A stretch of 64,000 bases of DNA from positions 39,483 to 103,482 of the forward strand of contig CAYWBW010000004.1 of the NCBI GenBank assembly GCA_964456745.1. Reading direction: 5' to 3'. The DNA is from an uncultured Candidatus Peribacteria bacterium. GTDB lineage: Bacteria; Patescibacteriota; Gracilibacteria; GCA-2401425; JAJOLG01. Within the stretch, counting starts at the first letter, position 1. Each line of letters begins with the position of its first letter. A model generated the notes under the pieces. The model ran no database searches. It saw nothing but the letters and a program-made list of their open reading frames with translations, and had not been told where the DNA came from. This document shows positions 1 to 64,000 of the stretch, piece after piece. The translations under genes were made by a program, and so were the position numbers.

Positions 1-494
1 TAAAGTATAGTTTTAAAATTTTATCAGTCTAGCTAATTTATTTTAGCAAAATATCGTTACTCTAGGATGAATTCTGCTATTCATTTAACAAGCATTAATA
101 TACAAAGGACATACTATCTGAACATCATGAGATATAATTGTAACCTTTTATGCTTGCAACAATGGTCACAAAGCTAGTTCCGAGCTTATTGTCAAAAATA
201 AAAAAGTTTCTGACGTCGTCAGGTAGGGTGTACCAATTATTCTGCACATTAGAACTTGATTCTAGTGATTTTTGTTTACAATAAACAATTTATTTGCACT
301 CTCTATAATCTGATTGGTACTATTATTGTTTCTCATAATGAACATATTCACTCAATATTATTTTCAGTTGAAAAAGATTTGAAAATTTCCTTTTTAACTT
401 CATTGCTAATTCTTAAATATAGGGTTAAACTTAATTTGACATATAAATATATATAAATACTATTGTCAACCTTTAACATAATACATTTGAAGAT

Positions 495-1121
495 ATGTCA
501 AAAAATAGAAAAATTCACATTGATTTTGGTTCATGACCAAGATGAGAATATCTAGTTAATTGGTTATCAAATCCATCTGAGCATTTTTCAGTTAAATCAC
601 CAAGTGATACCTTGCTTACGTTTGATAAATGATCTGCACCATGAGAAGCTTTAAAAAAAGAATTTAGCACTATTCGTAATTGAGTTAGTGATCAATGTGC
701 TACAAAAATGGATATAATTCTTTGACACTTTAAATATCATAATCAAATAGATTTAATCAACTGGTCGTACTGATGGCTTGATCAGAGTTGGTATTTTTTT
801 ATTGACAGTGCAAGTCTTTGTTTTTCAAATTTTTGAGTTTCTGAACAAGATATAGCTAATTTACATAATCAAATTGCAAGCATTTTAAAACCATGATGAT
901 ATTTTATTTTACGTGGTCCATGATATTCAAATAGATCAAATACAGATAATCAGAAAAAAATTGAAAACTATCTAAAATATCATTTGTGAGGCAAATATTG
1001 AATATTTTCTATCGCAAGTTTTAGGCAGCTTTTGCCTACTGAAATAGAACTACATGATTTTACTCCTCCTAAATGAATGGATACAGCTTTTGAAATTGTT
1101 TTAAGAAAAAATAAAACTTAA
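495..1121 (+). CDS. class I SAM-dependent methyltransferase (208 aa)
   Basis: ATG 495 to TAA 1119-1121; open only when the multiple in-frame TGA are read as Gly. Has motif I-like IHIDFGSGPRG and LKPGGYFIL, typical of Rossmann-fold methyltransferases. Confidence 0.6.
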
Positions 1122-1266
1122 AAAGTTATTTTATTTTAAAATCTTCAATCTACGAATCTCAAGATAAAAAATATTTCTTACAAAATAAGTTCGAAGTTCT
1201 ATACTTTCGTTATACTGTAATACCTAATACATTGACTTTACCACATCTAAAGCTATTTTATTGATA

Positions 1267-2916
1267 ATGAAAAAATGCATAGAATGTAATCAGGACTTTG
1301 GCATAACTGAAAAAAATCGCAAATTTTATAATAATATGTGAGTACCTGAACCAGACACTTGTCCAATAGATCGTTCTAGGCATCGTCTTGCTTTTCGTAA
1401 CATACGCAACATATGCCAGCGCAAATGTAGCGCAACTTGAAAAATGATATTCTCTCATTTTGATGATGATGTGCCATTTCCAGTGTATGAACGTGATTAC
1501 TGGTGGTCAGATAAATGGGATGGATTAGATTATGGACGTGATTTTGATTTTTCAAAACCTTTTTTTGAGCAATTTAAAGAGCTCTATCATGTTGCACCTG
1601 CACTAGGGCAATCTGCATTTTCTATTGAAAATTGTGATTATTGTAATTGATTAGCAAATTGTAAAAATTGTTATCTAAGTTTTAACATGGATTACTGTGA
1701 AGATTGCTATTATTTAACAGCCGGAAGATATTGTACTAGCTGTGTTGATTCTTTAAGTCTCTCGAAGTGTGAATTGTGTTATGAATGTGTTTATTGTAAC
1801 GATTCATATAGACTGTTTTACTCAGATAGAAGTACTAGCTGTCATGAAAGCTACTTTCTTTCAGGGTGTAGACAATGTAAAAACTGTATTGGTTGTTGCA
1901 ACCTGAGTCAAAAAGAAAATTATCTTTTTAATGAAAAAGCAACACCTGAAAAAATTAAAGAAGTAAAAAAAGAATTAGAAGATTATAATAAACTTGTTGA
2001 ATTTAATAAGAAATTTGAAAACTTTAAGACTAAATTTCCAAAAAAATATTATTATGGTAACTCAAATGAATCATCAACAGGAGATAGCTTAAGAAATGCA
2101 AAAGATTCAGAAAATTGTTTTTATTGTGATAATGTTGAAAATTGCAATTATTGTTATTTTGTTTTTAATTCTAACAATTGTCAGGATCTCGATATTTTTT
2201 GAGATAATTCCTCATGGCTATATAATTGCATGGCTACCTGAGAAAATTGTAATCATAACATTTGCTGTATATATACGTGGAGCTGATCAAGTAATAACTA
2301 TTATTCCAATATACTTAGTGCTTGCACTGATTGTTTTGGCTGCGCGAGTCTTAGAAATAAAAAATATTGTATTTTAAATAAGCAATATTCAAAAACAGAA
2401 TATGAAAAACTTATTCTGAAAATAATTGATCATATGAAATCTACTGGAGAATGGTGAAAATTTTTTCCAGTTTCAATGAGTCAGTTTGTATTTAATAAAA
2501 CTCTTGCTTTCGAAAATTACCCTTTATCAGAGAAAGAGATATTAGCACGGTGATGGAAGTATGAAAAAATTGAGAGCAAGATACTTGAAGTTGATAAGAT
2601 TATTGATGCTAAACAAATACCTAATAATATCAACTCTATCCCTGACGATATTTTAAATTGGGCAATAAAATGTGAAGAATCAAATAGGCCATACATAATT
2701 ACAAAAAGTGAGCTTGCGTTTTATAGAAATTATAAAATTCCAATTCCTCGCTTACACTCTGAAATCCGCCACAAAAATCGCCTAAAAATTCGCAATCCTT
2801 ACATACTATATCATAGACAATGCGACAAATGCTCCTCTAATATTCAAACAACATATAATCCCAAATGACCAGAAAAAGTATATTGTGAAGAATGTTATTT
2901 GAAAGAGCTATATTAG
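1267..2916 (+). CDS. cysteine-rich zinc-ribbon repeat protein (549 aa), function unknown
   Basis: ATG 1267 to TAG 2914-2916 with TGA=Gly; merges three fragments of the standard ORF track. N-terminal CIECNQDF..FY..GVPEPDTCP..R module is echoed at the C-terminus (CEESNRPYIITKSELAFYRNYKIPIPRLHSEIRHKNRL...CDKC...YCEECY). The central part has many CxxC/CxxCxxC pseudo-repeats (CDYCNGLANCKNCY, CEDCYY, CTSCVD, CELCYECVYC, CRQCKNCIGCC, CFYCDNVENCNYCY). Confidence 0.7.
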
Positions 2917-2929
2917 ATGTTATATTATA

Positions 2930-3502
2930 TTAATGTCGCAATATTCATTCTAAAGCATGTATACCAGTAATCTGATCAAGATTTCCAGTATGAACTTGCT
3001 TTATTACGATTAATACATCTATGGTTTTTTTACACTTTGCTCTGATTTTTGATTCAATGGCTCATAAGTTTTTTAGTTTTCACTCTTTCTTTTTTATATC
3101 ATATACTCATACAATTCTAACCATATCTAGTATTTGTTGTACAACTATATATTCAATTAGATTTTCACAAAATCATTCTTTTTTAATATCATCAATGTCC
3201 ATTATAACCTCTCAATCCACGTATAGCCATACTTCCATTTGATAATTTCAGTCTATTTTAAAAACTAAATTTTCAGGTAAAGGGTTTTGACAAAATGCTT
3301 GTTTAATTCTTGGATCTGCAAATACAATTTTTCAAGTTTTAACCTGGTCAACCAGTTGCTCAATAGCTGGTGATATTTTTTTCTTTAATGTATTTGATAA
3401 TGCCAGTACTTTATCTATCGTAGTACATTCAAATCGTTCTAGTTGCTCTATTGGCAATTGTTGATTAGATGAAAGCACTGATTTACTTAATTCAGTTAAC
3501 AT
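2930..3502 (-). CDS. hypothetical protein (190 aa)
   Basis: ATG (revcomp 3500-3502) to TAA (2930-2932), 573 nt, uninterrupted with TGA=Gly. No recognisable motif. Confidence 0.55.
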
Positions 3503-3598
3503 AATTGAATGGTAATATAATTAATAGTAAATTATAATATAAGTAATGTGTATCTTATCAAGTAGTATTGTGAAAAATCTTATACAAAACAATACTGC

Positions 3599-12306: not shown

Positions 12307-12433
12307 TTTTTTCCTTAAAGGAAAGTATTATAAGATATTACCAAGATTGGTCAATTGCAAAAACTATTGTTAATGGTTTTGCTGAATATTTGACATACTT
12401 TATAGATTATGTTATTCTATACTAAAACAAACT

Positions 12434-13444
12434 ATGAAGAATTTTAAAGAATATTTAACACATATATTAATAATCCTGCTAACATTTACAATATTTATAA
12501 GTTCAAATGTAAATGCAAGTTCCTCAATACCAAATAAAATAATATTTAATAAACATATGTACGAATGGTGAATACCAATAACCAGAACTTTAGTTTTTAG
12601 ATTTAGCCTATGGTCAGATTGAGACTATATCTTATCTGACATTCTCTGAGACTGATCAATTAATCAATCAAATCCCAACTTTAGTTAATATCAGGAAGTA
12701 CTGAATATAATTCCAAATTCAAAATGAAAATTTACATCAGATATTTGAACTATAAATCCGATTCCTTGAGTTAATGCAAATTTGCACAAATATTTGCAAG
12801 TTGAAATAAAAGAACTATGAGAAAATGACAACAAATTTGAAATACTGGATATTGATAATGATATAAATAACCAAACAGATAGAAAAAAAATTTGAATATC
12901 AACGTTTTCAATAGACTCTTCTAGTCTTGATAATAACAAGATTTGAAATAATCAGTGAGACATTGCCCTCTTATCAGAAAATTGAGTATTTAATTCAGAC
13001 AGAATTCCAAATAACACTAATAATACTCAGTTTACAATAAATTGCTGAGATAACAACTGAGATATAAAGTTAATCTTCGGTCAAGCCATAAACAAAGTTC
13101 TAAAATGGGCACAAACATCCAGTCAGTTTGAGTTTTGAGACAGTTTGAAAATTTGGTGAAATCTTATTGTTAATTGAGAAATCGAATCAAATTGAAAAAA
13201 TGTTGATGAATATTTAGACAGGATAGATACTCTTGAAGTAAAAATTAAAGAATTAGAGTTGTTAATATCAAATCACAATCACAATTGATGAAATGATGAT
13301 GATGATGATGATGAAGAAGAAGATGATGAAAATTGCAAAGATGCTAAAAAATGAAAATGACATTGTAAAAGCTGAAAATGAAAAAAGAAATGACATGAAA
13401 AAAATCATCATGAAGAAGAAGATGATGAAGAAGAAGATGATTAA
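12434..13444 (+). pseudogene. secreted protein gene interrupted by a single in-frame TAA (codon 85); otherwise a 336-codon frame
   Basis: ATG 12434 and signal peptide MKNFKEYLTHILIILLTFTIFISSNVNA. TAA at 12686-12688 was verified codon by codon. The same frame then stays open for 251 more codons to TAA 13442-13444, with no ATG near the restart. C-terminus is NHNHNGGNDDDDDDEEEDDE...KGHEKNHHEEEDDEEEDD. Confidence 0.5.
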
Positions 13445-20655: not shown

Positions 20656-21552
20656 ATGGATACAACAAAATTTATCTGGATGAATTGAAAGTTAGTCAAA
20701 TGGGACGAAGCTAAGATACATATACTTACTCATACTCTTCATTATTGATGATGAGCTTTTGAGTGAATAAGAGTTTATAAATGAAAGAAATGACCAGCTA
20801 TTTTTAGATTAGATGATCATGTTGAAAGATTTTTTTATTCTGCCTCCTCTATAAAAATAGAAATACCATATTCCAAAAAAAAAATTAAATCTGCAATTAT
20901 TAAAACAGTTAAGGAAAATGAGCTACAAGAGTGATATATCAGACCACTTGCTTATTTTTGATATTGAAAAATGTGATTAAATCCAAAATGAGCACCATCA
21001 GAAGTATCCATAGCATGTTGGCCATGGTGAGATTATCTTCCAGAAAAGATTGATGTCAAAATTACAAAATATATAAGAATACATCCGAAATCTAGCATTA
21101 CAGATGCTAAAATTACCTGACACTATGTTAACAGCATACTATCTGTACAACAAATTGAGTGAAGTAAGTATCAAGAGGCTTTGTTACTCGACTATGAATG
21201 AAATATTGCAGAATGACCATGAGAAAATTTTTTCATTGTTAATGATTGAAAAATTACCACACCTCCCACATGAGCAATATTAAAATGAATAACACGCAGA
21301 ACTGTTTTTGAAATATGTGATTATTTATGAATAAAAATAGAGGAAAAAAATATAAAACCAGAAGAGGCCTTTGCTGCAGATGAATCGTTTTTTTCTTGAA
21401 CGGCAGCTAAAATCACTCCAATTTGCTCAATTGATGATAATATAATTTGAAATTGAAATCCTGGTGTAGTATCTAAGAAAATTAGAGATACATATAGGGA
21501 TATTGTTACTTGAAATAATGAAGATTTTGTTCAACATCTAACTTTTATTTAA
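20656..21552 (+). CDS. ilvE: branched-chain amino acid aminotransferase (fold type IV), 298 aa
   Basis: Has HTLHYGGGAFEGIRVY, YIRPLAYFGYGKMGLNP, EGPGENFFIV, PTGAILKGITR and ESFFSGTAAKITPI. Confidence 0.85.
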
Positions 21553-23419: not shown

Positions 23420-23977
23420 TTATTTAGCTCTTTCTTTATACTCTCAAGTCTGTGTATTAATAACTATTTTTTCTCACTCAGTAATAAACAAAGGAACTTG
23501 TACAACAGATCAAGTCTCCAAGGTAGCTGGCTTTGATCAACCGGTAGCAGTATCTCACTTTAATCATGGACCCGTTTCAGCCACTTCTAAAACTACACTA
23601 GGAGCGAGTTCAATATTAATAACATTTCAATTCCACTTTATAACACTAACATCCATATTATCTGCTAAAAAGTTTACTTGATTTCACAACTTTTCAGAAG
23701 AAAATTCAAATTGATCAAAGGTCTCATTATCCATAAAAAAATAATCATCTCAAGACTTATAAAGATACTGAGCTCTTCATGATACGATATCTGCGTCATC
23801 TAAGTTTTCTCAAGACATAAAAGTTTTTTCAACTATATTTCAATTTAAAAGATTCTTCATTTTAGTAATCATCTTTGCAGATCATCTAGACTGAGGTCTC
23901 AATGTATAAGTTAGCACGGTCCATGGCTCACTATTCATCATAACTTTCATACCAGTTCTTAATTTTGAAGCTTCCAT
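23420..23977 (-). CDS. efp: elongation factor P (185 aa)
   Basis: Has LRTGMKV...EPWTVL, KMKNLLNGNIVEKTF, YLYKSGDDYFFMDNETFDQ and ETGPGLKGDTATGGSKPATLETG. Confidence 0.9.
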
Positions 23978-24142: not shown

Positions 24143-24217
24143 GGCCTCATCGTCTAGTGGTTAGGACACTGCCCTCTCACGGCGGAAACAGGGGTTCAAT
24201 TCCCCTTGAGGCTACCA
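24143..24217 (+). tRNA. tRNA-Glu (anticodon CUC), CCA encoded
   Basis: GGCCTCATCGTCTAGTGGTTAGGACACTGCCCTCTCACGGCGGAAACAGGGGTTCAATTCCCCTTGAGGCTACCA folds as a cloverleaf. Acceptor GGCCTCA/TGAGGCT, anticodon stem CTGCC/GGCGG, loop CT-CTC-AC, T-arm AGGGG/CCCCT. Closely resembles bacterial tRNA-Glu. Confidence 0.85.
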
Positions 24218-40201: not shown

Positions 40202-41293
40202 TTACTGAATTATACAATTTTCAATTTTGATTTTTAATTCCTTAATTCAAATCTTATTGATAGCAGAAATCATAGACGGACAAAATTTCTTATATTTCTT
40301 TAAAAATGTTTTAGTTTTAATATTTTTTATTAAGTCAATTTTATTACACACAAATAAAATCTTTTTATCCAAGACTCACAATTTATTTAATATTTCATGA
40401 ACAACTTTAATTTTTCTATCTTTTTGTAAATCAGAATAATCAATTACATGTAGAACAAGGTCTGCATGTATTGTCTCATCTAAAGTTGACTTAAAAGCAT
40501 CAATAAGACCAGGTGGCAAATCTTGTATAAATCAAATAGTATCTGAAACAAGGCATTTAGATCAAGATATTGGTAAAAACAAATCTCAAATTCTAGTATC
40601 CAAAGTAGCAAAAAGTTCATCTTTTATTTTGACTCATTTTCAAGTCAAGCTTAATAGAGTTTGTGATTTTCAGGCATTTGTGTATCAAACAATAGCTACT
40701 GTTTTTAATCACCTCCTTTCTCTATTTTTTCGGTACAATTCATGCCTATTTCATATTTTTTTTAATTTATCTTTAATTTTCTTCTCTCATAGTGCTAAAT
40801 GACGTTTCATCACCTCTGTATTCGTCTCCCCTTTTCACCTTGTTCAAATTCAACCAGCTTGTTTTGAAAGCTCAAGTCACATTCAAAAAATCCTTGGTCA
40901 CAATTGTCTTATTGCAGCTAATTCAATTTGCAATCTTGACTCTGATGTCATAGCATGCTTTTCAAAAATCTTAAGAATAAGATCTACTCTTGTCCAAATT
41001 TTTATGGAGTATTTATCAAAAATCCACTCAAGATTAAAAAGCTGTTTGCTTTTCAAGTTATTATTAATAATAATGAGTTTTGATCAAGTTCTTAAAGCAT
41101 CATCTTTAATCTCTTCTAGTTTTCATTTTCATATAAAAGTTGAATAATCAGGAATAATTCTTCTTTGGATCTTTTTAATTATTACAAATCATCAATAAGT
41201 ATTAACCAAATTCTCAGATTCAATCATCCTTTCTTTTGCCTCTTTTTTAGAAAGCTTTGGACTAATTATATCAATAATTATTACTTTTCTCAT
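40202..41293 (-). CDS. hflX: GTPase HflX (363 aa)
   Basis: Has N-terminal HflX domain, GTRGKGETNTEV, G1 VGYTNAGKS, TLDT and NKID. Confidence 0.85.
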
Positions 41294-41309
41294 TGTAAAT
41301 ATTAAATTC

Positions 41310-44300
41310 TTAAGAAATTTTAGCACAACATTCACAGGTTTGCTTTCAACATCAGTCAAATTTCAAATTTTGTATTGATTTGTATACATCAACAATTTGC
41401 ATCTTCATTTCATCTACTTCATCTGATTCAATTCAAATTCTTATTTTTTTATACTTTCAATCTCTTCACTCTACAAAATCTATTTCTCACTCTTTCATGA
41501 CATATTTAGAAGAAAAATCATGATCAAGTGAAGTAAGAATTTTATAAAAAACCAACTGTTTTTTAATTTTTCAATCACTAGTGGCTGTATTTCATAAAAC
41601 CTCATTTTCAGACTTAATCCTTCAAGTTTTGTAATCTATTACTCTTACCGACTTAAGTATTCAATTAGATCAATCATTAATTAATTCGATTTTATCAATT
41701 TTTCATGTCAAAATTGCGTCATCAAGTCTAACATTTCTTGCATAAAAACTCAATTCTACTCATAGTGGTTTTTCAAAATCTTGCTTGTATTCTTCTAAAT
41801 ATCATTTCAATCATTCATATCATATTTCTTTAATCTCATTGCTCTCATCAATTGTAAGAACTTCTTTCAATAAAGCTGCATCAAAAAAATCACAAATCGC
41901 TTTATAACTTAACAAATCTCAATTGTTCTTGAAATGTAAAAAATATCTTTCCAAAGCCTTGTGAAATGCAGTTCATAAAACCATAGCTTTATTTTTTGCC
42001 TCAGGTATTTTAAGTAGATACTTATTTTTAAACCTTAATGGACAATCCAAATAAACGCTAAAAGAAGTAAAAGACAATTTAAAATCAATTAGTCATAGTT
42101 TTAAATATTCTTCTTCTGATGCATTATCAATATTAGAAATAGGAGAAAAATTGTTCATAAAATAATTCTCTTGATCTTCTATATTTAGAACAAAATTACA
42201 TTTTTTAAAATTATCCAATCAAATCTCAGAAATAAACTGAGACGGTACAACTTGCTTTTCAGATATTTCAGAAATAATCTTTTTAGAAAATGAAATATAA
42301 CATCTCTTTTTAGATCTTGTGATTGCTACAAAGAAAAGTCTTCTCTCTTCTTCGTTTAACAACTTAGCAGAACTTAATTCAAGAAAATCGTTAGTGTTAA
42401 TACTTTTTTTGTCATCAAAACTCGGAAACATAGGTAATTTAATTTTATCAAATGATCTTCTATTTCCCCATTTTTTATCAACACAAGATAAAATAAAACA
42501 ATAATTAAATTCTAAACCTTTTGACTTATGTGCAGTCATAATATTTACTCACGATAGAGCTGTTTCAAATCAAGTTTCTCCAATCTTAATTCAAAACTGT
42601 TGAAAAGTGTCAATTATCTCCAAAAAACCCTTTATTTTTAAATTTTGATCAATTTGATTAAAGCTCTTTATTTTGTTAAATAAAGTATTGATTTTATTTA
42701 AAGCACTAATTGATCACTCAGACATAACAAAATCTAAAACTCAAGATTTTTTGAGAAAAAACTCAAAAAACTTATAAAAAGTCTCCTTTGCTAAAATTAT
42801 CTTAAACTGCTCTATTAAAGCTACAAAATCATCAATTTTTTCCCTTTTAGATAAATCTAATTTATCTAAAACTTCATCATTAGTAATTATATCAAAATAA
42901 TGCTTTGGCCATTTTAAACTGTGGTTTATATTAGATAAATGATTTGAAATCTTATAAAGATCAATCTGACCTATTCAGGTAAATGGTAATGACATAGTAT
43001 AATAAAGAGCTTCATCATTAAAAGGATTATCAATAATCTTCAAATAATCAATAATAATCTGAACAAACTTGCTAATCAAAACATTTTCACCTCAAGAAAA
43101 ATTTACATCAATTTTATTTTTAATTAAAAAACTCGCCACTTGTTCAACTTCAGCATTAGACCTAAGAAATATTGCAATTTCATCCAACTTAGCTCAAGTA
43201 CTAAGAAGGGATTTAATTTCTTTCAGTATAAACACCTTTTCTTCTTGATCATTTTCAGATTCATTTAATAATATTTTATCTCATACTCCACTATTTGACT
43301 TAAGAGATTTTTCAATATTTGAATCAAAATTTTCAAGTCTAACAATTCCATGGCCGATTAAACTATAAGATCAATCTAAAATTTCTTGAGTAGACCTATA
43401 ATTTTGCTTCAATACAATTTTCTCCAAATCTTTAAAATGTTGTTCAAAAAATAATATATTCTCCACACAAGCTCATTGAAATCTATAAATTGACTGATCA
43501 TCATCTCAAACGGCAAAAACATTCGGACTCTGCTCAAAGGCATAAGAAGTAAGAAGCATTACAATCTCATTTTGTGCTGAATTTGTATCTTGATACTCAT
43601 CAATTAGAATATATTGATATTTTTCTTGAAAAAATGCTAAAAGATCAGAATCAGATTTAAATTTATTCACTACAAATAGAATCATATCTTCAAAGTCATA
43701 CTTTCAATCTATTTTTATTGTCTCTTGATATTTTGAATACACATCCAAAAGCTCTAATAATTTAAAAATGTTTTTTTCTAACTTATCCCACTTTTTCAGC
43801 CTCACTCAAGTTTTTTTATTATAAGTTAAGCCTGACTTAAAGTTATTGCTTTCATTTTCAATGAGGTCCTCAAATCATTTCACACTCACGTCTTCCCTTT
43901 TAAGATCTGATATTGCTTTAATAATATATGGGACGTAATAATATTTATTTCAAAAAGTTGTAAGATGATTGTATTTTCAATTATCAATTATTCATTTTAA
44001 AATTTGAATTTTTTCAAAATCATCAATTTGACTAAGATTTCGAGCAAATAAAAATTTCTCTGTAAAACTTCAAATAACCTCATTACAAAAAGAATGAAAA
44101 GTGTGAACACTAACTTGATAAGAATCTACTCATATAATTTCAAGGAGTCTTTGTTTTATTGCATAAACTCCAGAATCGGTAAATGTCAAGGCAAGAATGT
44201 TGTTTGGTAAAACATCTCATGCCTTTAACAAAATATTTGCAATTCGCATTGCTATGATTTCTGTTTTTCAAGTTCATGGACCAGCAATTACTAACACAGG

Positions 44301-44375
44301 TCAATTAATAGTATTCACAGCTTTAATCTGATCAGAATTTAAACGAGAAAGTCGATTGTTGAAAACTTTATTCAT
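41310..44375 (-). CDS. UvrD/PcrA-type superfamily-1 helicase fused to a C-terminal Cas4/AddB-like PD-(D/E)XK nuclease with 4-Cys cluster (1021 aa)
   Basis: 3066-nt ORF. Helicase motifs: AGPGTGKTE, LTFTDSGV, ILIDEYQDTN, FAVGDDDQSIYRFQGA, QNYRST, MTAHKSKGLEF and RRLFFVAITRSKK. Nuclease motifs: LDCPLRFKNKY, GKIDKIE, VIDYKTG, QLVFYKIL and C-terminal GCGKQTCECC. Confidence 0.85.
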
Positions 44376-47720: not shown

Positions 47721-48112
47721 AAAAATTTAGATTTAGTGAAGTTGTTACTATAATAGTGTCACTACTACTAATATTCTTTGTTGCAAAAATAGTTTACGAT
47801 GACAAAATTCTAAAAGAATATTTGCATGAATTTGAAAAGAAAAATTTAGAAATTGAAGAAAAAAATAGAATACAGAATATTAATTATAAATACTTTGAAA
47901 CACCACAATTTAAAGATCTTTATGCAAAAGAAAATCTTAATCTTCTCAGAACTTGAGAAAAAGCAATGATTATAAAAAAGGAAAAATCAAAAATTGATTT
48001 TATTGAAAAAGCATTTAATCACAAAAAAGAAGAAAACATCGAAAATTACGATATTGTAAAACAATGGGGAATTTATTTTAATATTTATAAAACTGAAAGC
48101 TTGTCTATGTAA
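47708..48112 (+). CDS. small bitopic coiled-coil membrane protein, FtsB/DivIC-like (134 aa)
   Basis: ATG 47708 overlaps the upstream stop by 13 nt. Has TM VVTIIVSLLLIFFVA followed by a charged coiled-coil (KEYLHEFEKKNLEIEEKNR). A GTG alternative start lies at 47756. Confidence 0.4.
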
Positions 48113-49179
48113 GACAATATAAGTCATCACATTTCTTTAGTTCATATTGAACTAGCATTATCAGTACAAATATCTCAAGTTCTATATCAATCTTCTAACA
48201 CATTATAAACGGCCAATTCTATCAATGAAGATTCTTCATATAATCAAAAGGAATGCTTAAGACACATCGCTACAGACAATATTTGAGCTATTGGATTAGC
48301 AACTCATCTTCATGCAATATCAGGAGCTGATCATCACGAAGGTTCATAAAGTCAAAATCAATCACTATTTAAACTAGCTGACGGCATAAGTCATAAAGAT
48401 CAAGGCAAAACAGCTGCTGCATCAGATAGAATATCTCAAAACATATTTGGACAAAGCATTAAGTCAAACTGTGAAGGATTTTTTATTATTTGCATAGCTG
48501 CGTTATCTACTAGCATATGCTCTAAGTAAACATCTTTAAAATCACCTGAAACCTCGGTAACAACTTGTCTCCATAGCTTAGAACTATCTAAAACATTAGC
48601 CTTATCAATTGAAACAAGCTTTTTTTTTCTTTTTTGAGCAGAGACAAAAGCAATCTTTGCAATGTTTTTAATTTGACTTTCGCTATACTCAGCTACATCG
48701 CTTGCAAATCTTTCTCAGTCTACAAGTCTAGTTTCGTGTTTTCAAAAATATATATCTCATATAAGCTCTCTAATTATAAGAATATCTATACCATCTTTTA
48801 ATAAACTATCTTTTAATGGGCATATATTAGTCAAAAATGGATAAACTTTGACAGGACGAAAATTTGCATTAAACTGAAAGGTTTTCCTCAAAGAAAGAAT
48901 TGAATTTTTTTCGCAATCTATCCACCTTTCCTTATCTTGGTCTTTTACAGGTCAACCAACTGATCAAAATAAAATCGCATCTGCACTTTTGCATATTTGC
49001 TTTGTATGATCTGGGAAATGAGTTCCATATTGATCATATGCCTCTCATCAAATCAAAGCTTTCTTATAAGAAAAATCATGATTAAATTTTTCTGCAATTT
49101 TATCAAGAACAGCGATAGCCTCAGCCATAACCTCTTCTCAGATTCAATCTCATGGCAAAATGGCAATAGTTTTTTTCAA
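48085..49179 (-). CDS. leuB: 3-isopropylmalate dehydrogenase (364 aa); TTG start
   Basis: Has [28 protein letters not shown]-like NFRPVK, IIRELIGDIYFG, DKANVL, NMFGDILSD and GLYEPSGGSAPDIAG. TTG 49177-49179 is the first start after an in-frame TAA. Confidence 0.9.
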
Positions 49180-49209: not shown

Positions 49210-51075
49210 TTATAAATATTTTCTAGGATCTGTAATTTTTCATTCAATACTACTAGCAGCTACTGTGGCAGGACTAGCAAGAAAAATTAATGAATCTTTA
49301 TGTCACATTCTTCATTTAAAATTTCTGTTACTAGAACTTAAGATTCTAGATCTAGAAGATGCAACTCATAAATGCTTTCAAAAACAAGGTCAACAATTAG
49401 GGGCCTCAATCATTGCTCAAGAATCTAAAAAAATCTTTATAAATCATGCATCTAAAGCTTTTTTATATATCTGATCACTAGCTGGTACTATAATCAAATT
49501 TACAGCCTCGTTTACATTATTTCATTCTAATATTTCTGCAGCTATTTGCAAATCTTCAAATTTTCAATTAGTACAAGCTCAAATAAAACACTGATTAACT
49601 TCAATATCCTTATCAGAAATAGCAGGAAAACTATTAGAATTTATTTTCATTGATTTATTAACCTGATTTACAATATCACTAATTCAACAAACATTTTCTG
49701 GACTATGTGGAAATGCAACCGCAGGCTCTAAATCACTTAAGTCCAAATCGATTTTCATTGAATAAACTGCTTCTTGATCCGCTTTAATTCAATTCACATC
49801 TTCTATTCAAATAGACTTTAAAAAATCTTTCAATATTTCATCGCAAGGAAATATTCAAGTTCGCGCACTCATTTCAACAACCATATTTGAAAGTGTGGTT
49901 CTCATATCCATAGACATATCCTCCAAAGCTGGTCAACTAAACTCAATTACTTTCTTAGAAGCTCACTTTGATCAAATAAGTGAAATCAAATGTAAGATAA
50001 CATCTTTTGCGCTAACTCATTTTTTTAATTTTCAAATTAAACTGATCTTAATTGTTTCAGGTACGATAAAATTAAATAAGGCTAAAGAAGCCATTGCATA
50101 AACACTATCAGTGGTTCAAACTCAAAGAGCAAAACTATTAATTGCTCAGGCAGTACAAGTATGTGAATCAGTTCATAAAACGACATTTCAAGGAAGTATT
50201 TCTCACTCTTCAATAAATACAATATGCTCAATTCACCTTCACTGTTTATACATTTTTATTCACTGATCTTTTGAAAAATCTTTCATCACTTCAATTCATT
50301 CAGATACAGCCACAGAGCAGGAGGGAATAGAGTGGTCTGGAATAAAAAGAATCTTACTATTATCAAAAACTCTAGCCTGAAGTCAAAAGTCTTTCTTGAA
50401 ATAATCAATTGCTGCTGGTCAAATAACTTCATTAATGTAAATCAAATCTATTGGCAAACAAGATATCTCATTTAATGAAAAAACTCTTTCTCAAACTTGT
50501 TTTGAAATGATTTTTTCTACAATAGTTTGACCTCTTTGAATTTGATCTGGTGATTTTTTAATATCAACTTTTCTTGATCAAATATAACTTTTAACAATTC
50601 AAACCTGTCATCATTCAATTATTAATCTTTTATGATAATCACTTATAAAAAAAGATAATATTTTTTCAGTTGTTTTATTTGTTATACTTAAATTTTCTAT
50701 ATCAATTTCAATATCATCTCAAAGCCTAAATAATTTTCTAACATTTTCAATTTTGATAAGTAAAAACCCATTATTAAATGCATTACGATAAAAAATATCA
50801 GGAAAACTTTCTGCAATGACGCATTTAATATTATTAAAAGATAGGGCATAAATTGCCTGTTCCCTAGACGAACCACAGCCAAAATTATTTCAAGCAACAA
50901 TTACATTTGACTCTTCTTTACTGCACTTTTCAACGAATTTGTGGTCAAATTTTTCAAATGCGTGTTTTGCGAAAAAAGCCTTATCAGTACTTTCTTGTAA
51001 TACATCTGCCCTAATTATATCATCCGTATTTATATCATCTTCATACTTACTGCTAACTTTTCAAAATATTTTCAT
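49210..51075 (-). CDS. leuDC: fused 3-isopropylmalate dehydratase, small subunit N-terminal and large subunit C-terminal (LeuD-LeuC, 621 aa)
   Basis: Single 1866-nt ORF. N-terminal part has LeuD motifs [23 protein letters not shown] and [14 protein letters not shown]. The frame then reads straight into LeuC motifs [39 protein letters not shown] and SSNRNFKGRMG. There is no stop or start at the junction. Confidence 0.85.
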
Positions 51076-52992: not shown

Positions 52993-54057
52993 TTAGTCTT
53001 TGGATCCAGCCATTTTTCTAGCCTGATCTTCTAATAATACTTTTTCAAAAACATCATTAATATTTCAATCCATTATTGAAGGTAAATTGCTCCAACTTGC
53101 TTTAATTCTGTGATCAGTAAGACGATCCTGAGGAAAATTGTAAGTCCTAATTTTCTCAGACCTATCTCAAGTTCACACTTGAGAAAGTCTCAAATCTTTT
53201 TGCTCTTTTTGTGCCTTCTCAATTTCTGCAGAATACAACCTACTTTTTAAAACAGTCATAGCAGATTGCCTATTTGCATGTTGACTTCTTCAATCTTGGC
53301 ACTCAACCACCAATCAAGTTGGAATATGAGTAATTCTTACAGCAGAATCTGTTACATTTACATGCTGCCCTCAAGCACCTTGAGATCTAAATGTATCAAT
53401 TCTTATATCTTCAGTTTTAACTTCAACCTCTTCTATATCATCAACCTCTGGCATTACAGCAACTGTAGCCGTAGAAGTATGAACTCTTCATTGTGTTTCT
53501 GTAAGAGGAACTCTTTGTACTCTATGAACTCAAGATTCATATTTATATTTTGAATAAGCTCAAGTTCAAATAACTTTAAAAGTAGCATATTTTACTCAAT
53601 CGGGCTCCACTCTTTGTACACTTATTATATCTACTTTATATCAATTATTTTCAGCATATCTTGTATACATTCTAAGAAGCTGTCAAGCAAAAATAGAAGC
53701 CTCATCTCAGCCTGCAGCTGGTCTAATTTCAACAATAACATCCCTATCGTCATTTGGATCTTTTGGCAATAAAACCACTTTTAATTCTTCCTCAATTTTT
53801 GGAATCATTTCCTTTGCTTCTTCAAGCTCCAACGAAGCAAGCTCTTTCATCTCAGGATCTTTCATTAATTCCAAAGCTTCATCCTTTTGTTTTAAATATT
53901 TTTCATAAATATGTAAAAGTTCTACAATTGGTCTTAAGCTCGCGGCTTTTTTGCTTAATTGAATATACTTTTTTTGATCAGACACTATGTCTTGTGACAT
54001 CAAGCTCTCATTTATTTTTTCAAGCTCTTGCTCAATTAATTTTAATTTATTTAACAT
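52993..54057 (-). CDS. prfA: peptide chain release factor 1 (354 aa)
   Basis: Has the PxT-type recognition loop [18 protein letters not shown] motif FRSQGAGGQHVN and [19 protein letters not shown]. The first G of GGQ is a TGA codon (53371-53373). Confidence 0.9.
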
Positions 54058-54377: not shown

Positions 54378-55427
54378 ATGGAGTATAATTATCTATCCAC
54401 AACCAACATCAAAGTAAGTAAAGCCTGTCTTTGAACAATGAGCTTTTGAGCACATGTCTCTGAAAATGAGTCGTTTAATATAATGGATAAAGCTTTGGAA
54501 CTTTGAATCAATTTCTTTGATACTGCTGAAATATATAGCGTTCCACCATCAAAAGACACATTTTGAATTACAGAAAATATTATCTGAAAATGGATAAAAT
54601 CTAGAAATGCGCGAAACAATATTGTACTAGCTAGTAAAATAACATGACCAGCAAGGCCTTGATTTGTTGACTATATAAGATGATGAGATACAAATTTCTC
54701 TAAAGATAGTATTGAAAAAGCAATTGATTGAAGTTTAAAACGATTAAACACTGATTTTATTGATCTTTATCAACTTCATTGGCCAGATAGAAATTTAAAC
54801 ACTTTTGGTCAAAGACATTTTATCCCATACGATGAAGAGATCATGAGACCAATTGAAGAAATTCTCAATTCTCTTCAGTATTTTATTAAAAAATGAAAAA
54901 TCAGAAAAATTTGACTTTCCAATGAATCTCCCTGGTGAACAATGAAATTCCTTCAAAAATCTAAGGAATTAAATTTGCCCAGAATGGTTAGTGTACAAAA
55001 CAGTTATAGCCTTCTTACCAGAACTTTTGACACATGCCTTTCTGAGATAAGTTTAAAAGAAAATATTGGCTTGCTCGCTTATTCACCTCTATGATATTGA
55101 GTTTTATGATGAAGATATATTGATTGAAACAAACCCGAATGATGACGTTTTACGAAATATCCAAGATATAATTTAAGATACCAATCATCAATGGTTAACG
55201 AGCTTATTAAGAAATACGACGCACTAGCTAAAGAAAATTCTCTAAAACTCTCAGAGCTCGCACTTACCTTTGTTTATTCAAAACCATTTTTAACAAGTTG
55301 TATCATTTGACCATCAAATGTTGATCAATTAATAGAAAATGTTAATGCTCTAAATATAACTTTATCAAAAGATGTTTTTAAATGAATTGAAAAAATTAAT
55401 GAGATTTGTCCTAATGTATGTGCTTAA
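54378..55427 (+). CDS. aldo/keto reductase (Tas-like), 349 aa
   Basis: Has FFDTAEIY, DLYQLHWPD, GLSNESPW, QNSYSLL, AYSPLGYG and IIGPSNVDQL. Confidence 0.85.
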
Positions 55428-55514: not shown

Positions 55515-56351
55515 TTATATCTTTTCTCAATCTACATAAATATCAAATAATCTGTGAAAATTGTCCTCTTTTAATTTTTCTGATAAATATTTCGTTGTAA
55601 ATATTACTATATTCCCAACCTTAAACGGGTTATCATTCCAATCATTTCGCACCAATAGCAAAATTCCAAGTCAAGTGTTTTCAATACTAGAAACATCTGT
55701 CAAATCTATAACAAATTTTCTTCACTTTATAAATTTTATGGCTAATTCACAAAGACTCTCAAACTCTCAATGAATCGTATGATCAAAAACTCCGCTCATT
55801 ACAAGAATAACTTCTCCTGGCGTTTCTTTAATTTTTCACTCTTCTAAATATTTTTTATAAGCTATTTCCTCTGGTGATTCAATGATGCTAGTATCAGCTT
55901 GGACACTTACATGTTGTGTATGTGTTTCATCCATAACTTCTTCAACTTCAGCTCAATCTATAACCTGAATATCAAAATAGTCATGAAGAAATCATGCATT
56001 AGCAAAGTCATTACTAATCTTCTGATTAATCCTAAGTTTCACTTTGCATGAATCACTTCTTTTTTCAAAATAAATACGAATAAATTGTAATAACATGTCT
56101 TCAAATCAAATATTAACACTATCTACTAATGTCATATCTAATATTATTTTCTTTTTATTATTAGTCTCAATCAATGTATCATCTGTGATTCTCATAAAAA
56201 TACTATCAGAAATAGTTCAAAAATCTCAAATTAATTTAATAGTGATATTATTTTTACCAGGTTTAATAACTCATTCTAACTTATTATTTTTATATACTGG
56301 ATAACTCGAGGCACTTTCTACTCCTCTCTTTTTCTTCTTCTTTTTAGACAT
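55515..56351 (-). CDS. tandem-STAS-domain protein (278 aa)
   Basis: 837-nt ORF with a lysine-rich N-terminus. Two halves each have the STAS-like pattern (ITIKLIGDF...ILDMTLVDSVN and ILVMSGVFDH...FVIDLTDVSSIENTGLGILLL). Paralog of the next gene. Confidence 0.55.
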
Positions 56352-56428: not shown

Positions 56429-57256
56429 TTAAAACGGCTTTTTTTCAATACCATCAATATATAACTGAAAGAACTTATGAAAATTTGAAGCTGCTAAATA
56501 ATTTCAATACTTTCAAGTAGCCAAAATTCATATATTATCAAGTCATGGATCGGCTTGCTTGTTTGTTTGGTTAAATAAAAGTAAAATACCTAGTCCGAGT
56601 TGATCTAGATTAGAAATAGTAGTTAAATCCAGAATCAACTGTCTTCAATTCAATTGTTTCAAGGCTCTTGTGCAAGTATCTCTAAACACTCAATGAATTT
56701 TAAAATCAAGTATGCCACTTATTTTAACAATAACCTGATCTGGGGTCTCAATTACTTGAAATTGATCCAATTGCGCATTTAAATCTGTAACGGCTGATTC
56801 AACAATATCATTATCAACTCATCTGCCAACAGCTTGATGTATATTACCAATGGTATCTGTTATTTCAGATCAATGTACTACCTGAATCTCAAACATATTA
56901 TAGACAGTAGGCTCAGCAGAAAGCATATTATCCATTTCCTGACTAAGCTTAACTACAATCAAAGCATTAAAAGAATTTTCATGATTAACTCGTCAAAAAG
57001 CTGCAAGCATGTAAGTAAATCAATCACAAACAGTGTTTACTCAAAAACAATCAATTATAATTTTTTTGTGTTTATTGGCATTAATTAAGATCTTAGATGC
57101 AATTCATGCAAACACTTGCTCAGAACTTTGTCAAAAACTTCATTTGAATGCAATGACAACTTCTTGATCCGTACTTCTTATCCATCATTCAAATCCCCTA
57201 TATTGATATTCACAACTATATCACAATACTTTCGGACACCTTTGCATAGAATGCAT
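56429..57256 (-). CDS. tandem-STAS-domain protein (275 aa)
   Basis: 828-nt ORF. Has VIAFKGSF...IIIDCFGVNTVCDGFTYML and IVKISGILDFKIH...LILDLTTISNLDQLGLGILLL. The C-terminal half is clearly similar to the 55515-56351 product. Confidence 0.55.
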
Positions 57257-59833: not shown

Positions 59834-59874
59834 GTAAGGAAAAAGCTAGTATTTTTTAGCTATTTTCAGCCTTT

Positions 59875-62421
59875 ATGCATATTAGAAAAATTGCCCGGGA
59901 ACTTTGAATCACAACTCAAGACCTTAAACAGGAGCTTATTAGTGTAAACTTCTGAGTTGATCCAAATGAAAATGAAGTTCCAGATCATCTGGCTTCATGA
60001 ATTTTGAGAGTGCTTTGAAGAAAATTCAAGTGAAATAAAAAAAGCAAAGTAGTTAATGAGATAGAAAAACCAGCCCCTGTTAGTAATGTTGAAAAACCTG
60101 AAAAGTCGAAAGAAATTGTAAAAGACACAGAAACTGAAGAAAAACCTCAAAAAAAATCAATTAGGGAAAGACGTCTAGAGCAAGAAAAAATAAAACAAGA
60201 TTTAGCATTAGAAAAAGAAAAAAGTGATAGGAAAAAACAAACTGAAAAAAAACTTGAAGATGAATTTAAAAGTTTAAATAAAAAGAAATTCTCTGCTAAA
60301 TGAGAAAACATAAAGTGAAAAAAGCAAGAAAAAAGATTTGGTCAAGATAAAAGCAAAGACTGAATGATTGCTGTAACACGCAAGATTCAAATTTGAAAAG
60401 ATGATTACCCTGAAAGTAAAAAGAAATCTAAGAAAAAATGACATCATGAAGAACAAGAACAAAAAGCTTCTAAAAAACTTAAATTCAATGAGCTTTCTAA
60501 AGAAGAAATAGACTTGATGAGTGAAGAAGAAAGAATTGAATATTTTGCAGATCTTGAAGAGAGCAAGAGACTTGATGATGAAATGTTTAAAACTCAACAA
60601 CAAAAAAAGAAAAAAGTAATTAAAGCTTTTTCAAACCAAGAACAAATAAAAGAAAAACAATGAATAGTTGAACTTCCAGATATTGTAACAATTAAGGAAT
60701 ATTCAGAAAAAATTTGAGTACCTGTTTCTAAGGTAATAGCTGCTTTGATGAAAAACTGAATGATGATGACTATCAACCAATCAATTGATTTTGATACAGC
60801 TTCTCTACTTGCTTCTGATTTTGATGTTGAAGTTATTAAATCAATCGTTTCTGCTTCTGCAGAAGAATTGATAGAGTGAGATTTATCTAAACTTATAAAA
60901 GATGAAAAAGAAAATTTAATAGGAAGACCACCTGTTGTAGTTGTGATGTGACATGTTGATCATTGAAAAACATCCATTTTAGATTACTTTAGAAAGACAA
61001 ATATTATTTCAAAAGAAGCATGATGAATAACTCAACATATCTGAGCTTACCAGATTGATAGCAAAAAAAGAAAAATAAGCTTTTTAGATACGCCGTGACA
61101 CGAAGCATTTACTGCAATGAGAGCTAGATGAGCTAAAGTTACTGATATTGCAATACTGGTTGTAGCTGCTGATGATTGAGTAAAACCTCAAACAGTAGAA
61201 GCATATAATCATGCCAAAGAAGCATGAGTTTCTATAGTTGTAGCAATTAATAAAACTGATGTCCAATGAGCAAACATCGATAAAGTTAAATGAGAACTTG
61301 CAGAAATCTGACTAATGGTAGAAGATTGGTGATGAGAAATTCCATGCGTTTGAGTTTCAGCTAAGCATTGACAATGAATGGACGATTTACTAGATACTGT
61401 ATTTTTACTTTCTGATATGTTAGAGTTGAAAGCAAATCCAAATCGTAAAGCTATCTGAACTGTCGTTGAATCACATTTAGACAAATCCCACTGACCAGTT
61501 GCGACTGTTTTAATAAATACCTGAACATTAAAGAAAAAAGATATTTTTATTGCATGAACTACAATGTGAAGAGTGAAATCAATGATTGATTCAATTTGAA
61601 AATCCAAGAATTCACTTGATCCATCATGAGTATCACAAATTTCCGGATTTGAGGAAGTTCCAAATGTTTGAGACATACTACAAGTAGTATCAAATGAAAA
61701 AGAGGCTAGAGAAAGAACAGAAAAAATAAAACTTATACATGAGCAATCATCAAATAAATGAGTATGAATTGAAGAAATTCAAAGAAGAATTGCAGCATGA
61801 AAAATGAATTTATTAAAAATCATTATTAAATCAGATACACAGTGATCTCTTGAAGCTATTACAAATTCCTTAGTTAAAATTTATAATGATGAAGTATGAG
61901 TTAAAATAATTCATTCTTGAGTTTGATCGATTACAGACTCGGATATTCTTATGTCCACTGCTTCTAATGCTTTAGTAATTTGATTCCATATTTCAATTGC
62001 TCAGCAAACAAGATTACTCGCTGATAAAGAGTGAGTTGAAATTCAAGAATTTAAAGTAATTTATGAAATAGAAAATGCAATCAAAGCTCTACTGACTTGA
62101 ATGTTAAAAACTGAAGAAGTAGAGGTTGAAGCATGAGAAGTTGTAGTAGAACAAATTTTCTATACTAAGAAAAAAATGATGATCGTTGGTTGAAAAGTTG
62201 AAAAGTGATTTGTAAGGAAATGAGCAAAAGTAATTGTTGAAAGAAAATGAGAAGAGATAGATAGCGCACAAATTACCAATCTTAAATTTTTCAAAGATGA
62301 CGCTGAGGAAGTTAAAAAATGAAATGAATGCTGAATGCAATTTAATAAAAAAATTGATATAGAGAAATGAGATATCTTAAAAATCTTTGTTATAGAAAAG
62401 AAAATAAAGAGTTTAGACTAA
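59875..62421 (+). CDS. infB: translation initiation factor IF-2 (848 aa)
   Basis: N-terminal IF2_N-like [17 protein letters not shown], then a Lys/Glu-rich linker. G domain has VVVVMGHVDHGKTS, DTPGHEAF and NKTD, followed by the C-terminal beta-barrel and IF2 C domains. Confidence 0.95.
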
Positions 62422-62455
62422 AAACCTCTTGCATTTTAGAGTATTATTAATTAAA

Positions 62456-62482
62456 TTAGCACTCGCGTTTTGAAAGTGCTAA
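62456..62482 (+). promoter_or_regulatory. CIRCE operator (HrcA binding site) upstream of groES
   Basis: TTAGCACTC-GCGTTTTGA-AAGTGCTAA versus consensus TTAGCACTC-N9-GAGTGCTAA (one mismatch). Lies 25 nt upstream of the groES ATG. Confidence 0.75.
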
Positions 62483-62506
62483 TATTTACCAATTAACATT
62501 ATATAT

Positions 62507-62773
62507 ATGTCAACAATAACACCATTATGAGACAGAATTATTATTGAAGCTAAGCTTGCCGAAAATGAAACAAGTTCTTGAATTGTTCTTCCTAATAGTA
62601 AGGAAAAGCCGATGGAATGAATTGTAATAGCTGTTAATCAATCATCAAACAAAATAACTGTTTGAGTTTGAGAAACTGTTCTTTATAAAAAATATTCTGC
62701 GACTGAAGTAAAAATAGATTGAAAAGAATATTTAATCTTAGATATTGATGATGTATTAGCCACTGTTAGCTAA
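62507..62773 (+). CDS. groES: co-chaperonin GroES (88 aa)
   Basis: Has PLGDRIIIE, mobile loop ETSSGIVLP, EGIVIAVN and VGETVLYKKY. Confidence 0.9.
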
Positions 62774-62839
62774 TAATTTATCTTTTAATCCTAAAAAACA
62801 CTTAATATAAAAAATTATTAACCAAATTAACTAATAAAT

Positions 62840-64000
62840 ATGGCTAAACAAATAACATTTTGAGATGATGCTAGACACGCATTACATGCATGAGTAAAAA
62901 AATTAGCTGATGCAGTCAGGGTAACAATGTGACCCAAGTGAAGAAACGTAATTCTTTGAAAAAAGTATTGAGGTCCAGTTATAACAAATGACTGAGTCAC
63001 AATCGCAAAAGAAATTGAGCTTGAAGATCAAATAGAAAACATGTGAGCACAAGTTGTAAAAGAAGTTGCAAGTAAAACAAATGATGTTGCATGAGATTGA
63101 ACATCAACTGCTACTATTTTGGCAGATGCAATAATCACAGAATGACTTAAACACATCGTTGCTGGTTCAAACCCTATGGTGATAAAAAAATGAATCGAAA
63201 AAGCTTCTTCTTATTGCATAAAATCACTAGAGTGAGTTGCTGTTCAGATTAACACTAAAGAAGAAATTGCACAAGTTGCAACAAATTCTGCACAAAATGA
63301 AGAAGTGTGAAAACTGATATCGGAAGTTATTGAGATAGTTTGAAAAGACTGAGTGATCACTGTGGAGGATGGTCAAACAATATGACTTACTAAAGAAGTA
63401 GTTGAATGAATGCAATTTGATAATTGATATATTTCTCCATATATGATTTCTGATACTAGAGCAATGGCATCTGAAATCAAAGATGCAAAAATTCTTATAA
63501 CTGACAAAAAAATATCATCTATCCAAGAGATACTACCTTTACTTGAAGCTGTTGCGAAATGAGGTAAAAAAGATTTAGTTATTATAGCAGAAGACATTGA
63601 AGGAGAAGCACTTACTACACTTGTGCTTAATAAGTTAAGATGAAGCTTTAATGTACTTTGAATAAAAGCTCCATGATTTTGAGATAGAAGAAAGGAGATG
63701 CTTAAAGATATAGCTATATTAACATGAGCAAGAGTAATATCAGAAGAAGTATGACTTTCTCTTGAAAAAACTACACTAGAAGATTTAGGTCAAGCTTGAA
63801 AAGTGGTTTCTACAAAAGACAATACCGTAATCGTTGATTGAAAATGAGATCAAAAAGCTATAGAGCAAAGAGTTGAGCAAATCAAGATTGAAATTGATAA
63901 TTCAAGCTCTGAATTTGATAAAGAAAAACTAGCTGAAAGACTTTGAAAACTTACATGAGGTGTGGCCATTATAAAAGTATGAGCTGCAACTGAAGTTGAA
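62840..64000 (+). CDS. groEL: chaperonin GroEL (N-terminal 387 codons; 3' end beyond window)
   Basis: [39 protein letters not shown]...[43 protein letters not shown] with TGA=Gly. The frame is open to the window edge. Confidence 0.95.

Follow-up and report, generated by a model that had tools for sequence, protein, structure and literature searches.

Gene content and open reading frames

The window (the whole 64-kb stretch of DNA that was analysed) was gene-dense and low in GC, and the features that carry the evidence on its genetic code are collected in Table 1. In the fused dehydratase the small subunit was N-terminal and the large subunit C-terminal, and the real start of hflX is probably Met41, near 41293. 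The gene for RF1 was present and intact; its product scored 480 and 474 bits with the prfA equivalogs, but only 306 bits with prfB (cut-off 370), and its tripeptide at the PxT position was PLT. No rRNA was found in the window, and a scan for tandem repeats and composition gave nothing relevant.

Table 1. Features of the window, with positions counted from its first nucleotide.
Feature	Position	Strand	Remarks
Whole window	1..64000	none	Gene-dense chromosomal DNA; GC 27.1%; TGA sense, TAA/TAG sole terminators
ilvE (branched-chain aminotransferase)	20656..21552	+	26 TGA vs. 1 GGN
efp (EF-P)	23420..23977	-	13 TGA; Trp of EPWTV is TGG
tRNA-Glu(CUC)	24143..24217	+	Sole tRNA of the window
hflX GTPase	40202..41413	-	P-loop GYTNAGKS, both Gly are TGA
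UvrD/PcrA-type helicase fused to PD-(D/E)XK nuclease	41310..44375	-	CGA at aa 44 and aa 112
leuB (3-isopropylmalate dehydrogenase)	48085..49128	-	22 TGA
Fused isopropylmalate/homoaconitate dehydratase	49210..51075	-	40 TGA vs. 4 GGN
prfA (RF1)	52993..54057	-	NCBIfam prfA equivalog cut-offs passed, prfB cut-off failed
Tas-like aldo-keto reductase	54378..55427	+	CGA at aa 79 and aa 122
infB (IF2)	59875..62421	+	57 TGA vs. 4 GGN
groEL (5' part, continues past window end)	62840..64000	+	32 in-frame TGA

Under the standard code (table 11) the open reading frames (ORFs) were shattered: the longest had 171 aa, and the longest stretch between two stops was 189 codons. Frames were not rescued by reading TAG (189 codons) or TAA (285 codons) as sense. 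When TGA was made sense, the longest frame between two stops rose to 1069 codons and the longest ORF from an ATG to 1068, and approximately 84% of the window was covered by 54 ORFs. The 52 complete ORFs that were counted ended in TAA (42) or TAG (10), so that UAA and UAG still act as stops. The shattered frames, the ORFs of up to 1068 codons and their restriction to TAA and TAG ends had all been claimed in the initial annotation, and the same values were recovered here. The 54 ORFs contained 977 in-frame TGA codons (54.6 per 1000 codons, or 5.5%); TGA was found in every real gene and GC was even across the window (0.25-0.30), indicating that the recoding spans the whole of it.

An in-frame TAA at 12686-12688, affecting one pair of ORFs, was the sole apparent exception to the use of TAA as a stop.

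Amino acid specified by TGA

Three independent tests were used to identify the residue. When 12 E. coli orthologues were aligned by BLASTP, a partner was obtained for 277 TGA codons: Gly in 185 cases, Ala in 14 and Ser in 12, with Trp outside the six commonest; the GGN codons of the window, aligned in the same way, fell on Gly in 28 of 43 cases, a rate matching that of TGA. In deep alignments, built with homologues of normal Trp content, 29 of the 30 conserved columns containing a TGA in IF2 and 32 of the 34 in GroEL (61 of 64 altogether) had a Gly share of 80% or more, and Trp was the consensus in no conserved TGA column of either protein. Pfam bit scores were higher for the Gly than for the Trp translation in all five proteins scored (385 vs. 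310 for LeuB, 151 vs. 91 for GroEL and 125 vs. 76 for the GTPase domain of IF2), the loss caused by Trp ranging from 15 to 76 bits per matched family. The three tests agree, and this sequence evidence supports the assignment of UGA to Gly and not to Trp, as originally claimed; the scoring of alternative translations by HMM and BLAST had been proposed as a check on that claim.

The recoding was also apparent at individual sites. Eleven TGA codons were located in the first 105 codons of groEL, ten at positions where E. coli has Gly, as the initial annotation had described, and the eleventh at an Asp. Both glycines of the P-loop of IF2 (GHVDHGKT) were encoded by TGA, as were both in HflX (Table 1) and the first G of the GGQ motif of RF1; these sites had been singled out beforehand and were seen as reported. 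The statement that Trp is still TGG, illustrated by EPWTV in EF-P, also held, and the lone TGG of the IF2 alignment was in a column with 95% Trp.

It is therefore very probable that the window uses NCBI genetic code 25, in which UGA is Gly and UAA and UAG are the sole stops. The recoding of UGA to Gly has been known, at first as a prediction, since 2013, when the code of Gracilibacteria / BD1-5 was reportedly described by Rinke and that of Absconditabacteria (SR1) by Campbell, and what is seen here is this textbook code 25, an already known phenomenon.

Relatives and decoding machinery

For IF2 (53% identity) and GroEL (67%) alike, the nearest named relative was an NCBI entry, 'Candidatus Gracilibacteria bacterium' (GCA_021129445.1), in whose contig TGA made up 79% of the Gly codons and whose IF2, as translated by NCBI, had Gly at the TGA sites. 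Standard-code Peregrinibacteria scored slightly below this match. A high-scoring 773-aa NCBI GroEL (P0123) was considered as a close relative and rejected, given that it translates under table 11 and belongs to a standard-code organism. Scanning genome contigs for RF1, with seeds on K/E-rich 8-mers that did not recover code-25 relatives, listed 80 loci, all of them standard code, the best being Peribacteria/Peregrinibacteria MAGs (54-56%). Going by the best-match names of two proteins, the source would be an uncultured low-GC patescibacterium of the Gracilibacteria type (BD1-5 / GTDB class JAEDAM01); the clade known to use code 25 is GTDB class JAEDAM01, i.e. BD1-5 together with Absconditabacterales.

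The window had in common with Gracilibacteria / BD1-5 the use of UGA for Gly, UAA and UAG as sole stops, the presence of prfA, and a low GC content (27% vs. 28.9% in a closed Gracilibacteria genome, in which prfA is present and prfB absent; Sieber 2019, PMC6851277). Use of TGA for Gly was equally heavy in the window and in the named MAG (81% vs. 79%). There was no difference in kind from the code 25 of Gracilibacteria, the window organism being distant from the named MAG and its public proteins being translated with code 4. The attribution of the recoding to the Gracilibacteria/SR1 type in the initial annotation fits the TGA-recoded nearest named relative and can be refined to plain code 25 (see below).

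In Gracilibacteria and Absconditabacteria, code 25 is accompanied by the presence of tRNA-Gly(UCA) and the absence of RF2 (PMC8629427), and the insertion of Gly at UGA has been proven by proteomics (Hanke 2014, PMC4032931). By analogy with the characterised code-25 genomes, UGA would be decoded by a dedicated tRNA-Gly(UCA) charged by GlyRS, and RF2 would be lost, so that RF1, encoded in the window, would end translation at UAA and UAG only. From the literature, the source genome is thus expected to contain tRNA-Gly(UCA) and to lack prfB. The Gly identity elements of a UCA-anticodon tRNA are G1:C72, C2:G71, G3:C70 and U73. The window, the 8.4 kb that follow its 3' end and the contigs of four relatives were searched for a UCA-anticodon tRNA, and none was found; nor was a second release factor found in the 64-kb window.

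Glycine codon usage

TGA was the main Gly codon, with 977 occurrences vs. 222 for GGN (81% of the total), and GGN codons were residual (1.1 per 1000 codons for GGG and 1.9 for GGC). Together they accounted for 6.7% of codons, which is normal for Gly. UGA now serves as the principal Gly codon of this AT-rich genome. The choice between GGN and TGA was compared with respect to position within the gene, the first 30 codons and neighbouring bases, and nothing notable was seen except in one Cys-rich gene.

Two related readings would go further than code 25 as it is known: the GGN box may be partly without a tRNA and becoming unassigned, or the change of UGA to Gly may have been gained independently of the known JAEDAM01 clade in what would be a deep-branching lineage, its IF2 being only 53% identical to that of the nearest named MAG. 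Either would mean that the recoding is further along than an "additional glycine codon". They are improbable, considering that the named Gracilibacteria relative has the same share of TGA (79%) and that the GGN codons of the window are still aligned with Gly.

CGA, CGG and TCG codons

In Absconditabacteria, CGA and CGG specify Trp in addition to UGA specifying Gly (Shulgina and Eddy 2021, PMC8629427). Several features of the window would suit this variant: the change of UGA to Gly and the low GC are shared, the low frequencies of CGA (13 per 10,000 codons) and CGG (2 per 10,000) match those given for the clade (PMC8629427), and TGG is rather low (6.4 per 1000). The CGA codons, however, were on Arg at all four conserved sites available. 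Each of the three solved structures shown had Arg opposite those at aa 79 and aa 122 of the aldo-keto reductase, and those at aa 44 and aa 112 of the helicase matched conserved Arg of PcrA, aa 44 being also Arg in mycobacterial UvrD1. None of the seven CGA sites aligned with E. coli orthologues was on Trp. CGG, with four codons in the genes of the window, could be judged at two variable polar columns, one K/S/R (infB codon 8) and the other E/R/Q, and never corresponded to Trp, which hints that CGG is Arg. No organism named as Absconditabacteria was among the best 120 matches of IF2 or GroEL. The Absconditabacteria variant is thus very improbable here; CGA is still Arg and the code is plain code 25, a negative that helps in placing the organism with the Gracilibacteria rather than with the Absconditabacteria.

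At conserved positions of IF2 and GroEL, nearly all adequately sampled codons were standard, with scattered single-column exceptions, and on these alignments all the testable remaining codons are standard, including UGG for Trp and CGA for Arg. A reassignment of TCG to Ala was suggested by the comparison with E. coli, in which 5 of 11 TCG codons were on Ala and none on Ser. It was ruled out by the column of IF2 aa 689 (S59/T40/A1) and by Ser in the three other adequately covered TCG columns.

Other explanations for the in-frame TGA codons

Code 4, in which UGA is Trp, is used by Mycoplasmatales and several insect endosymbionts, and resembles the situation described here in that an AT-rich, reduced genome has put UGA to use as a sense codon, presumably once RF2 had been lost. 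A low-GC genome with UGA as a sense codon would be compatible with it, and the gene calls of a public collection do place Trp at all 57 TGA codons of IF2. The inserted residue was nevertheless Gly: as detailed above, Trp was missing from the six commonest partners that the 277 aligned TGA codons had, 61 of 64 conserved TGA columns were Gly, every matched Pfam family lost score with Trp, and the single TGG of the IF2 alignment occupied a Trp column. UGA was also too frequent (5.5% of codons) for a Trp codon, and reading it as such would raise the Trp content to about 6%. Code 4 is extremely unlikely.

Phages and prophages that use code 25 are known from these bacteria (PMC10746230), and the window could in principle derive from a phage, a prophage or another mobile element instead of the host chromosome. 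This origin is hardly credible for a region that carries the core genes infB, groES/groEL, prfA, efp, hflX, leuB, the fused leuD/leuC-type dehydratase and ilvE, as well as purN, a class A PBP, lspA and one tRNA, that has a uniform GC, and that gave no match to phage structural or integrase domains.

The standard code, with the in-frame TGA codons explained by sequencing or assembly errors or by mass pseudogenisation, has the shattered table-11 ORFs as its sole point in favour and can be dismissed, since the 977 TGA codons are specifically at Gly positions, assemblies of several samples (ENA and Logan), made independently of one another, contained the same IF2 protein, the assembly that was compared (L089) was 99.99% identical to the window over a 14.1-kb overlap, and the same pattern was seen in relatives at 56-74% IF2 identity.

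Mistranslated public records

The IF2 and GroEL of the window are stored in a public protein collection with Trp at every TGA, i.e. translated with code 4, which bears out the warning of the initial annotation that a table-4 annotation of this DNA is wrong. The proteins of at least nine relatives were translated in the same way. Approximately 7% of the residues are wrong as a result, with Trp for each Gly encoded by TGA, and this substitution lowers the Pfam scores. Scientifically, code 25 in the window opens no new question, and its value is practical, in that it flags mistranslated public proteins. Given that no Trp signal was seen at CGA or CGG, table 25 is the right one for re-annotation, and not the Absconditabacteria variant. 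The affected records are P0001-P0004 for IF2 and P0121, P0122 and P0124-P0127 for GroEL.

TGA as a sense codon

The GC content of the window was 27.1%, and under table 11 its longest stop-to-stop frame was 189 codons; counted from a start codon, the longest ORF was 171 aa, the value given in the initial annotation. Reading TGA as sense extended the top frames to 1069, 1040, 856, 853 and 776 codons (stop-to-stop), in line with the ORFs of up to 1068 codons in that annotation; reading TAG as sense left the longest frame unchanged (189 codons), and reading TAA as sense gave frames of 285 codons at most. When TGA was taken as sense, non-overlapping ORFs numbered 54 and covered about 84% of the window, and the 52 complete ORFs counted ended only in TAA (42) or TAG (10), again as described. 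The proposal that the recoding extends over the entire window also held: every real gene contained TGA and GC was flat (0.25-0.30), and the recoding was therefore a property of the whole window and not an island.

Amino acid at UGA

Over 53 ORFs there were 977 TGA codons (54.6 per 1000) vs. 222 GGN, together 6.7% of codons, as is normal for glycine; taking TGA as Trp would give the proteins about 6% tryptophan. Five proteins were translated with Gly or with Trp at TGA, the HMM comparison proposed in the initial annotation, and Gly outscored Trp for every Pfam family scored: EF-P (Elong-fact-P_C, 94 vs. 70 bits; EFP, 77 vs. 61; EFP_N, 69 vs. 47), LeuB (Iso_dh, 385 vs. 310), RF1 (PCRF, 232 vs. 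197; RF-1, 149 vs. 133), IF2 (GTP_EFTU, 125 vs. 76; IF-2, 112 vs. 89; EF-G_D2, 65 vs. 34) and GroEL (Cpn60_TCP1, 151 vs. 91).

When 12 window proteins were aligned to their E. coli K-12 orthologues with TGA masked, the partner was Gly for 185 of 277 TGA codons (67%), followed by Ala (14), Ser (12), Glu (9), Arg (7) and Gln (6); Trp was absent from these six commonest partners. GGN codons were opposite Gly at the same rate (28/43), and TGG was opposite Trp in 7/18. Deep alignments were restricted to homologues of normal Trp content (116 for IF2, 113 for GroEL) and to columns of at least 80% consensus: TGA corresponded to Gly in 29 of 30 IF2 columns (Pro in the other) and to Gly in 32 and Ala in 2 GroEL columns, and the other codons in these columns were nearly all standard, with scattered single-column exceptions. 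The motifs cited in the initial annotation were as stated: the first 105 codons of groEL held 11 TGA, ten at E. coli Gly positions, and the eleventh proved to be at Asp; TGA encoded both glycines of the IF2 and HflX P-loops and the leading glycine of GGQ in RF1; and the Trp of EPWTV in efp was TGG. Pfam scores, E. coli orthologues and deep alignments thus all supported the proposed reading, and at the sequence level UGA was shown to be translated as Gly.

Tests for further codon changes

In Absconditabacteria, CGA and CGG have also been reported to mean Trp, and in some Gracilibacteria CGG may do so (Shulgina and Eddy, PMC8629427). The window's genes contained 24 CGA and 4 CGG codons. CGA was paired with Arg at all 4 well-aligned, conserved sites and with Trp at none of the 7 sites aligned to E. 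coli. Arg was present in all three structures shown for the Tas-like aldo-keto reductase (CGA at aa 79 and aa 122, SLKRL motif) and in PcrA for the UvrD/PcrA-type helicase (CGA at aa 44 and aa 112; HRIA, NRNFS). Neither of the two judgeable CGG positions, both variable, polar and basic, gave a Trp signal: IF2 aa 8 (column K 52%, S 18%, R 16%) and HD-GYP aa 176 (where solved structures have E, R or Q). These comparisons showed CGA to be Arg and weakly suggested the same for CGG; the code is therefore table 25 rather than the variant of the Absconditabacteria, from which the window differs in keeping CGA, and probably CGG, as Arg. This distinction is new with respect to the initial annotation.

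A reassignment of TCG to Ala, prompted by 5 of 11 TCG codons opposite Ala in the E. coli comparison, was rejected: the IF2 aa 689 column was S59/T40/A1, and Ser also occurred in the three remaining TCG columns that had sufficient homologues aligned.

Termination and decoding

Against NCBIfam prfA the window's RF1 exceeded the cut-offs (480 and 474 bits), and its prfB score of 306 bits fell short of the 370 cut-off; its GGQ was intact, and the tripeptide at the PxT stop-recognition position was PLT. As judged from the sequence, termination was by UAA and UAG only. A tRNA(UCA) was found neither in the window nor in the adjoining 8.4 kb past its 3' end, nor at the loci of the relatives. By analogy with the clade (PMC8629427; PMC6851277; bioRxiv 10.64898/2026.05.24.727570), a dedicated tRNA-Gly(UCA) would decode UGA and prfB would be absent from the genome. 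Proteomics of a BD1-5 enrichment has confirmed Gly at UGA (PMC4032931).

Relatives and public records

The public records of the window's own IF2 (P0001) and GroEL (P0121) carried Trp at every TGA (57 Trp where 57 Gly belong in IF2), bearing out the warning that table-4 annotation would be wrong. The closest relatives in the collection were also code-4 translations: IF2 P0002, P0003 and P0004 (74%, 64% and 56% identity to the window) and GroEL P0122 and P0124-P0127. About 7% of residues in all these records were wrong and Pfam scores were lowered, a second point beyond the initial annotation. A single NCBI MAG, “Candidatus Gracilibacteria bacterium” GCA_021129445.1, supplied the nearest named proteins for both markers (IF2 53%, GroEL 67%) and was translated by NCBI with Gly; Peribacteria/Peregrinibacteria, CPR groups, ranked next. 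TGA made up 79% of Gly codons in the contig of this MAG (L095, GC 30%) and 69-84% in further relatives; a high share of TGA among Gly codons is therefore common to this low-GC group, and “high usage of TGA as a glycine codon” has been acknowledged (PMC10746230). The RF1 search of genome contigs, driven by low-complexity 8-mers and not a nearest-neighbour search, returned only standard-code genomes (best, Peribacteria/Peregrinibacteria MAGs, 54-56%).

Overall, the initial observation was confirmed and its interpretation supported: the recoding is the already known one, in a probable member of a lineage known to carry it. Only placement outside JAEDAM01, the class known for code 25, or loss of GGN decoders, if true, would make the case more notable.

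Gene content and atypical genes

Several ENA and Logan assemblies carried the same sequence as the window (99.99% identity to part of ENA ERZ23498660 scaffold_169, 147.6 kb, over the 14.1-kb overlap compared). Pfam and NCBIfam annotation gave ordinary cellular genes and no phage hallmarks. Translation and chaperones were represented by infB, groEL, prfA, efp and hflX, biosynthesis by leuB, ilvE, purN and the fused IPM/homoaconitate dehydratase, and envelope and export functions by a class A PBP, lspA, an S41 protease and an SLH-domain surface protein; others were an ABC-F ATPase, a hybrid histidine kinase, a UvrD-nuclease fusion, FTR1, ApbE and transporters.

Coordinates of individual features in the window
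Feature	Position	Strand	Observation
Cys-rich protein	1267-2916	+	549 aa, many CxxC pairs; C-terminal treble-clef zinc finger below threshold
Interrupted ORF	12374-13441	+	104 codons with signal peptide (MKNFKEYLTHILIILLTFTIFISSNVNA), then in-frame TAA (12686-12688); no Pfam match
DUF4015 gene	13659-14939	+	putative glycosyl hydrolase
tRNA-Glu(CUC)	24143-24217	+	only RNA gene in 64 kb
hflX, longest ORF	40202-41413	-	104-nt overlap with 3' end of helicase-nuclease gene
Helicase-nuclease gene	41310-44375	-	
Secreted protein	44514-47720	+	1068 aa, IPT/TIG repeats, C-terminal S-layer homology (SLH) domains
Fused isopropylmalate/homoaconitate dehydratase	49210-51075	-	621 aa; small (LeuD-type) subunit N-terminal, large (LeuC-type) C-terminal; adjoins leuB
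Paralogue 1	55515-56351	-	~275 aa, weak C-terminal STAS domain
Paralogue 2, adjacent	56429-57256	-	~275 aa, weak C-terminal STAS domain
groES	~62507-62773		from a gene table

The fused dehydratase and leuB, together with ilvE elsewhere in the window, represent branched-chain amino-acid capacity in a patescibacterium. Members of this group are usually portrayed as widely deficient in biosynthesis. The secreted SLH protein may serve in a surface layer or in attachment, and the STAS paralogues had no other recognisable domain. The tRNA-Glu(CUC) reads the rarer GAG (14 per 1000 codons vs. 51 for GAA).

In the Cys-rich gene TGA made up 45% of Gly codons (9 TGA, 11 GGN) vs. 81% overall (binomial p = 0.0003), and this gene may have been acquired recently from a standard-code organism or be under different constraints. 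Past the TAA of the interrupted ORF, the same frame ran for 251 more codons without Met and ended in an acidic/basic low-complexity tail; a pseudogene, read-through or an error in sequencing could account for this. The full DUF4015 profile was matched only from a start upstream of the first ATG and the frame opens with LKIYLKIRSVLL..., which resembles a signal peptide, and a non-ATG start is therefore likely. The Pfam match of HflX began only after Met41, and the true start is therefore probably near 41293.
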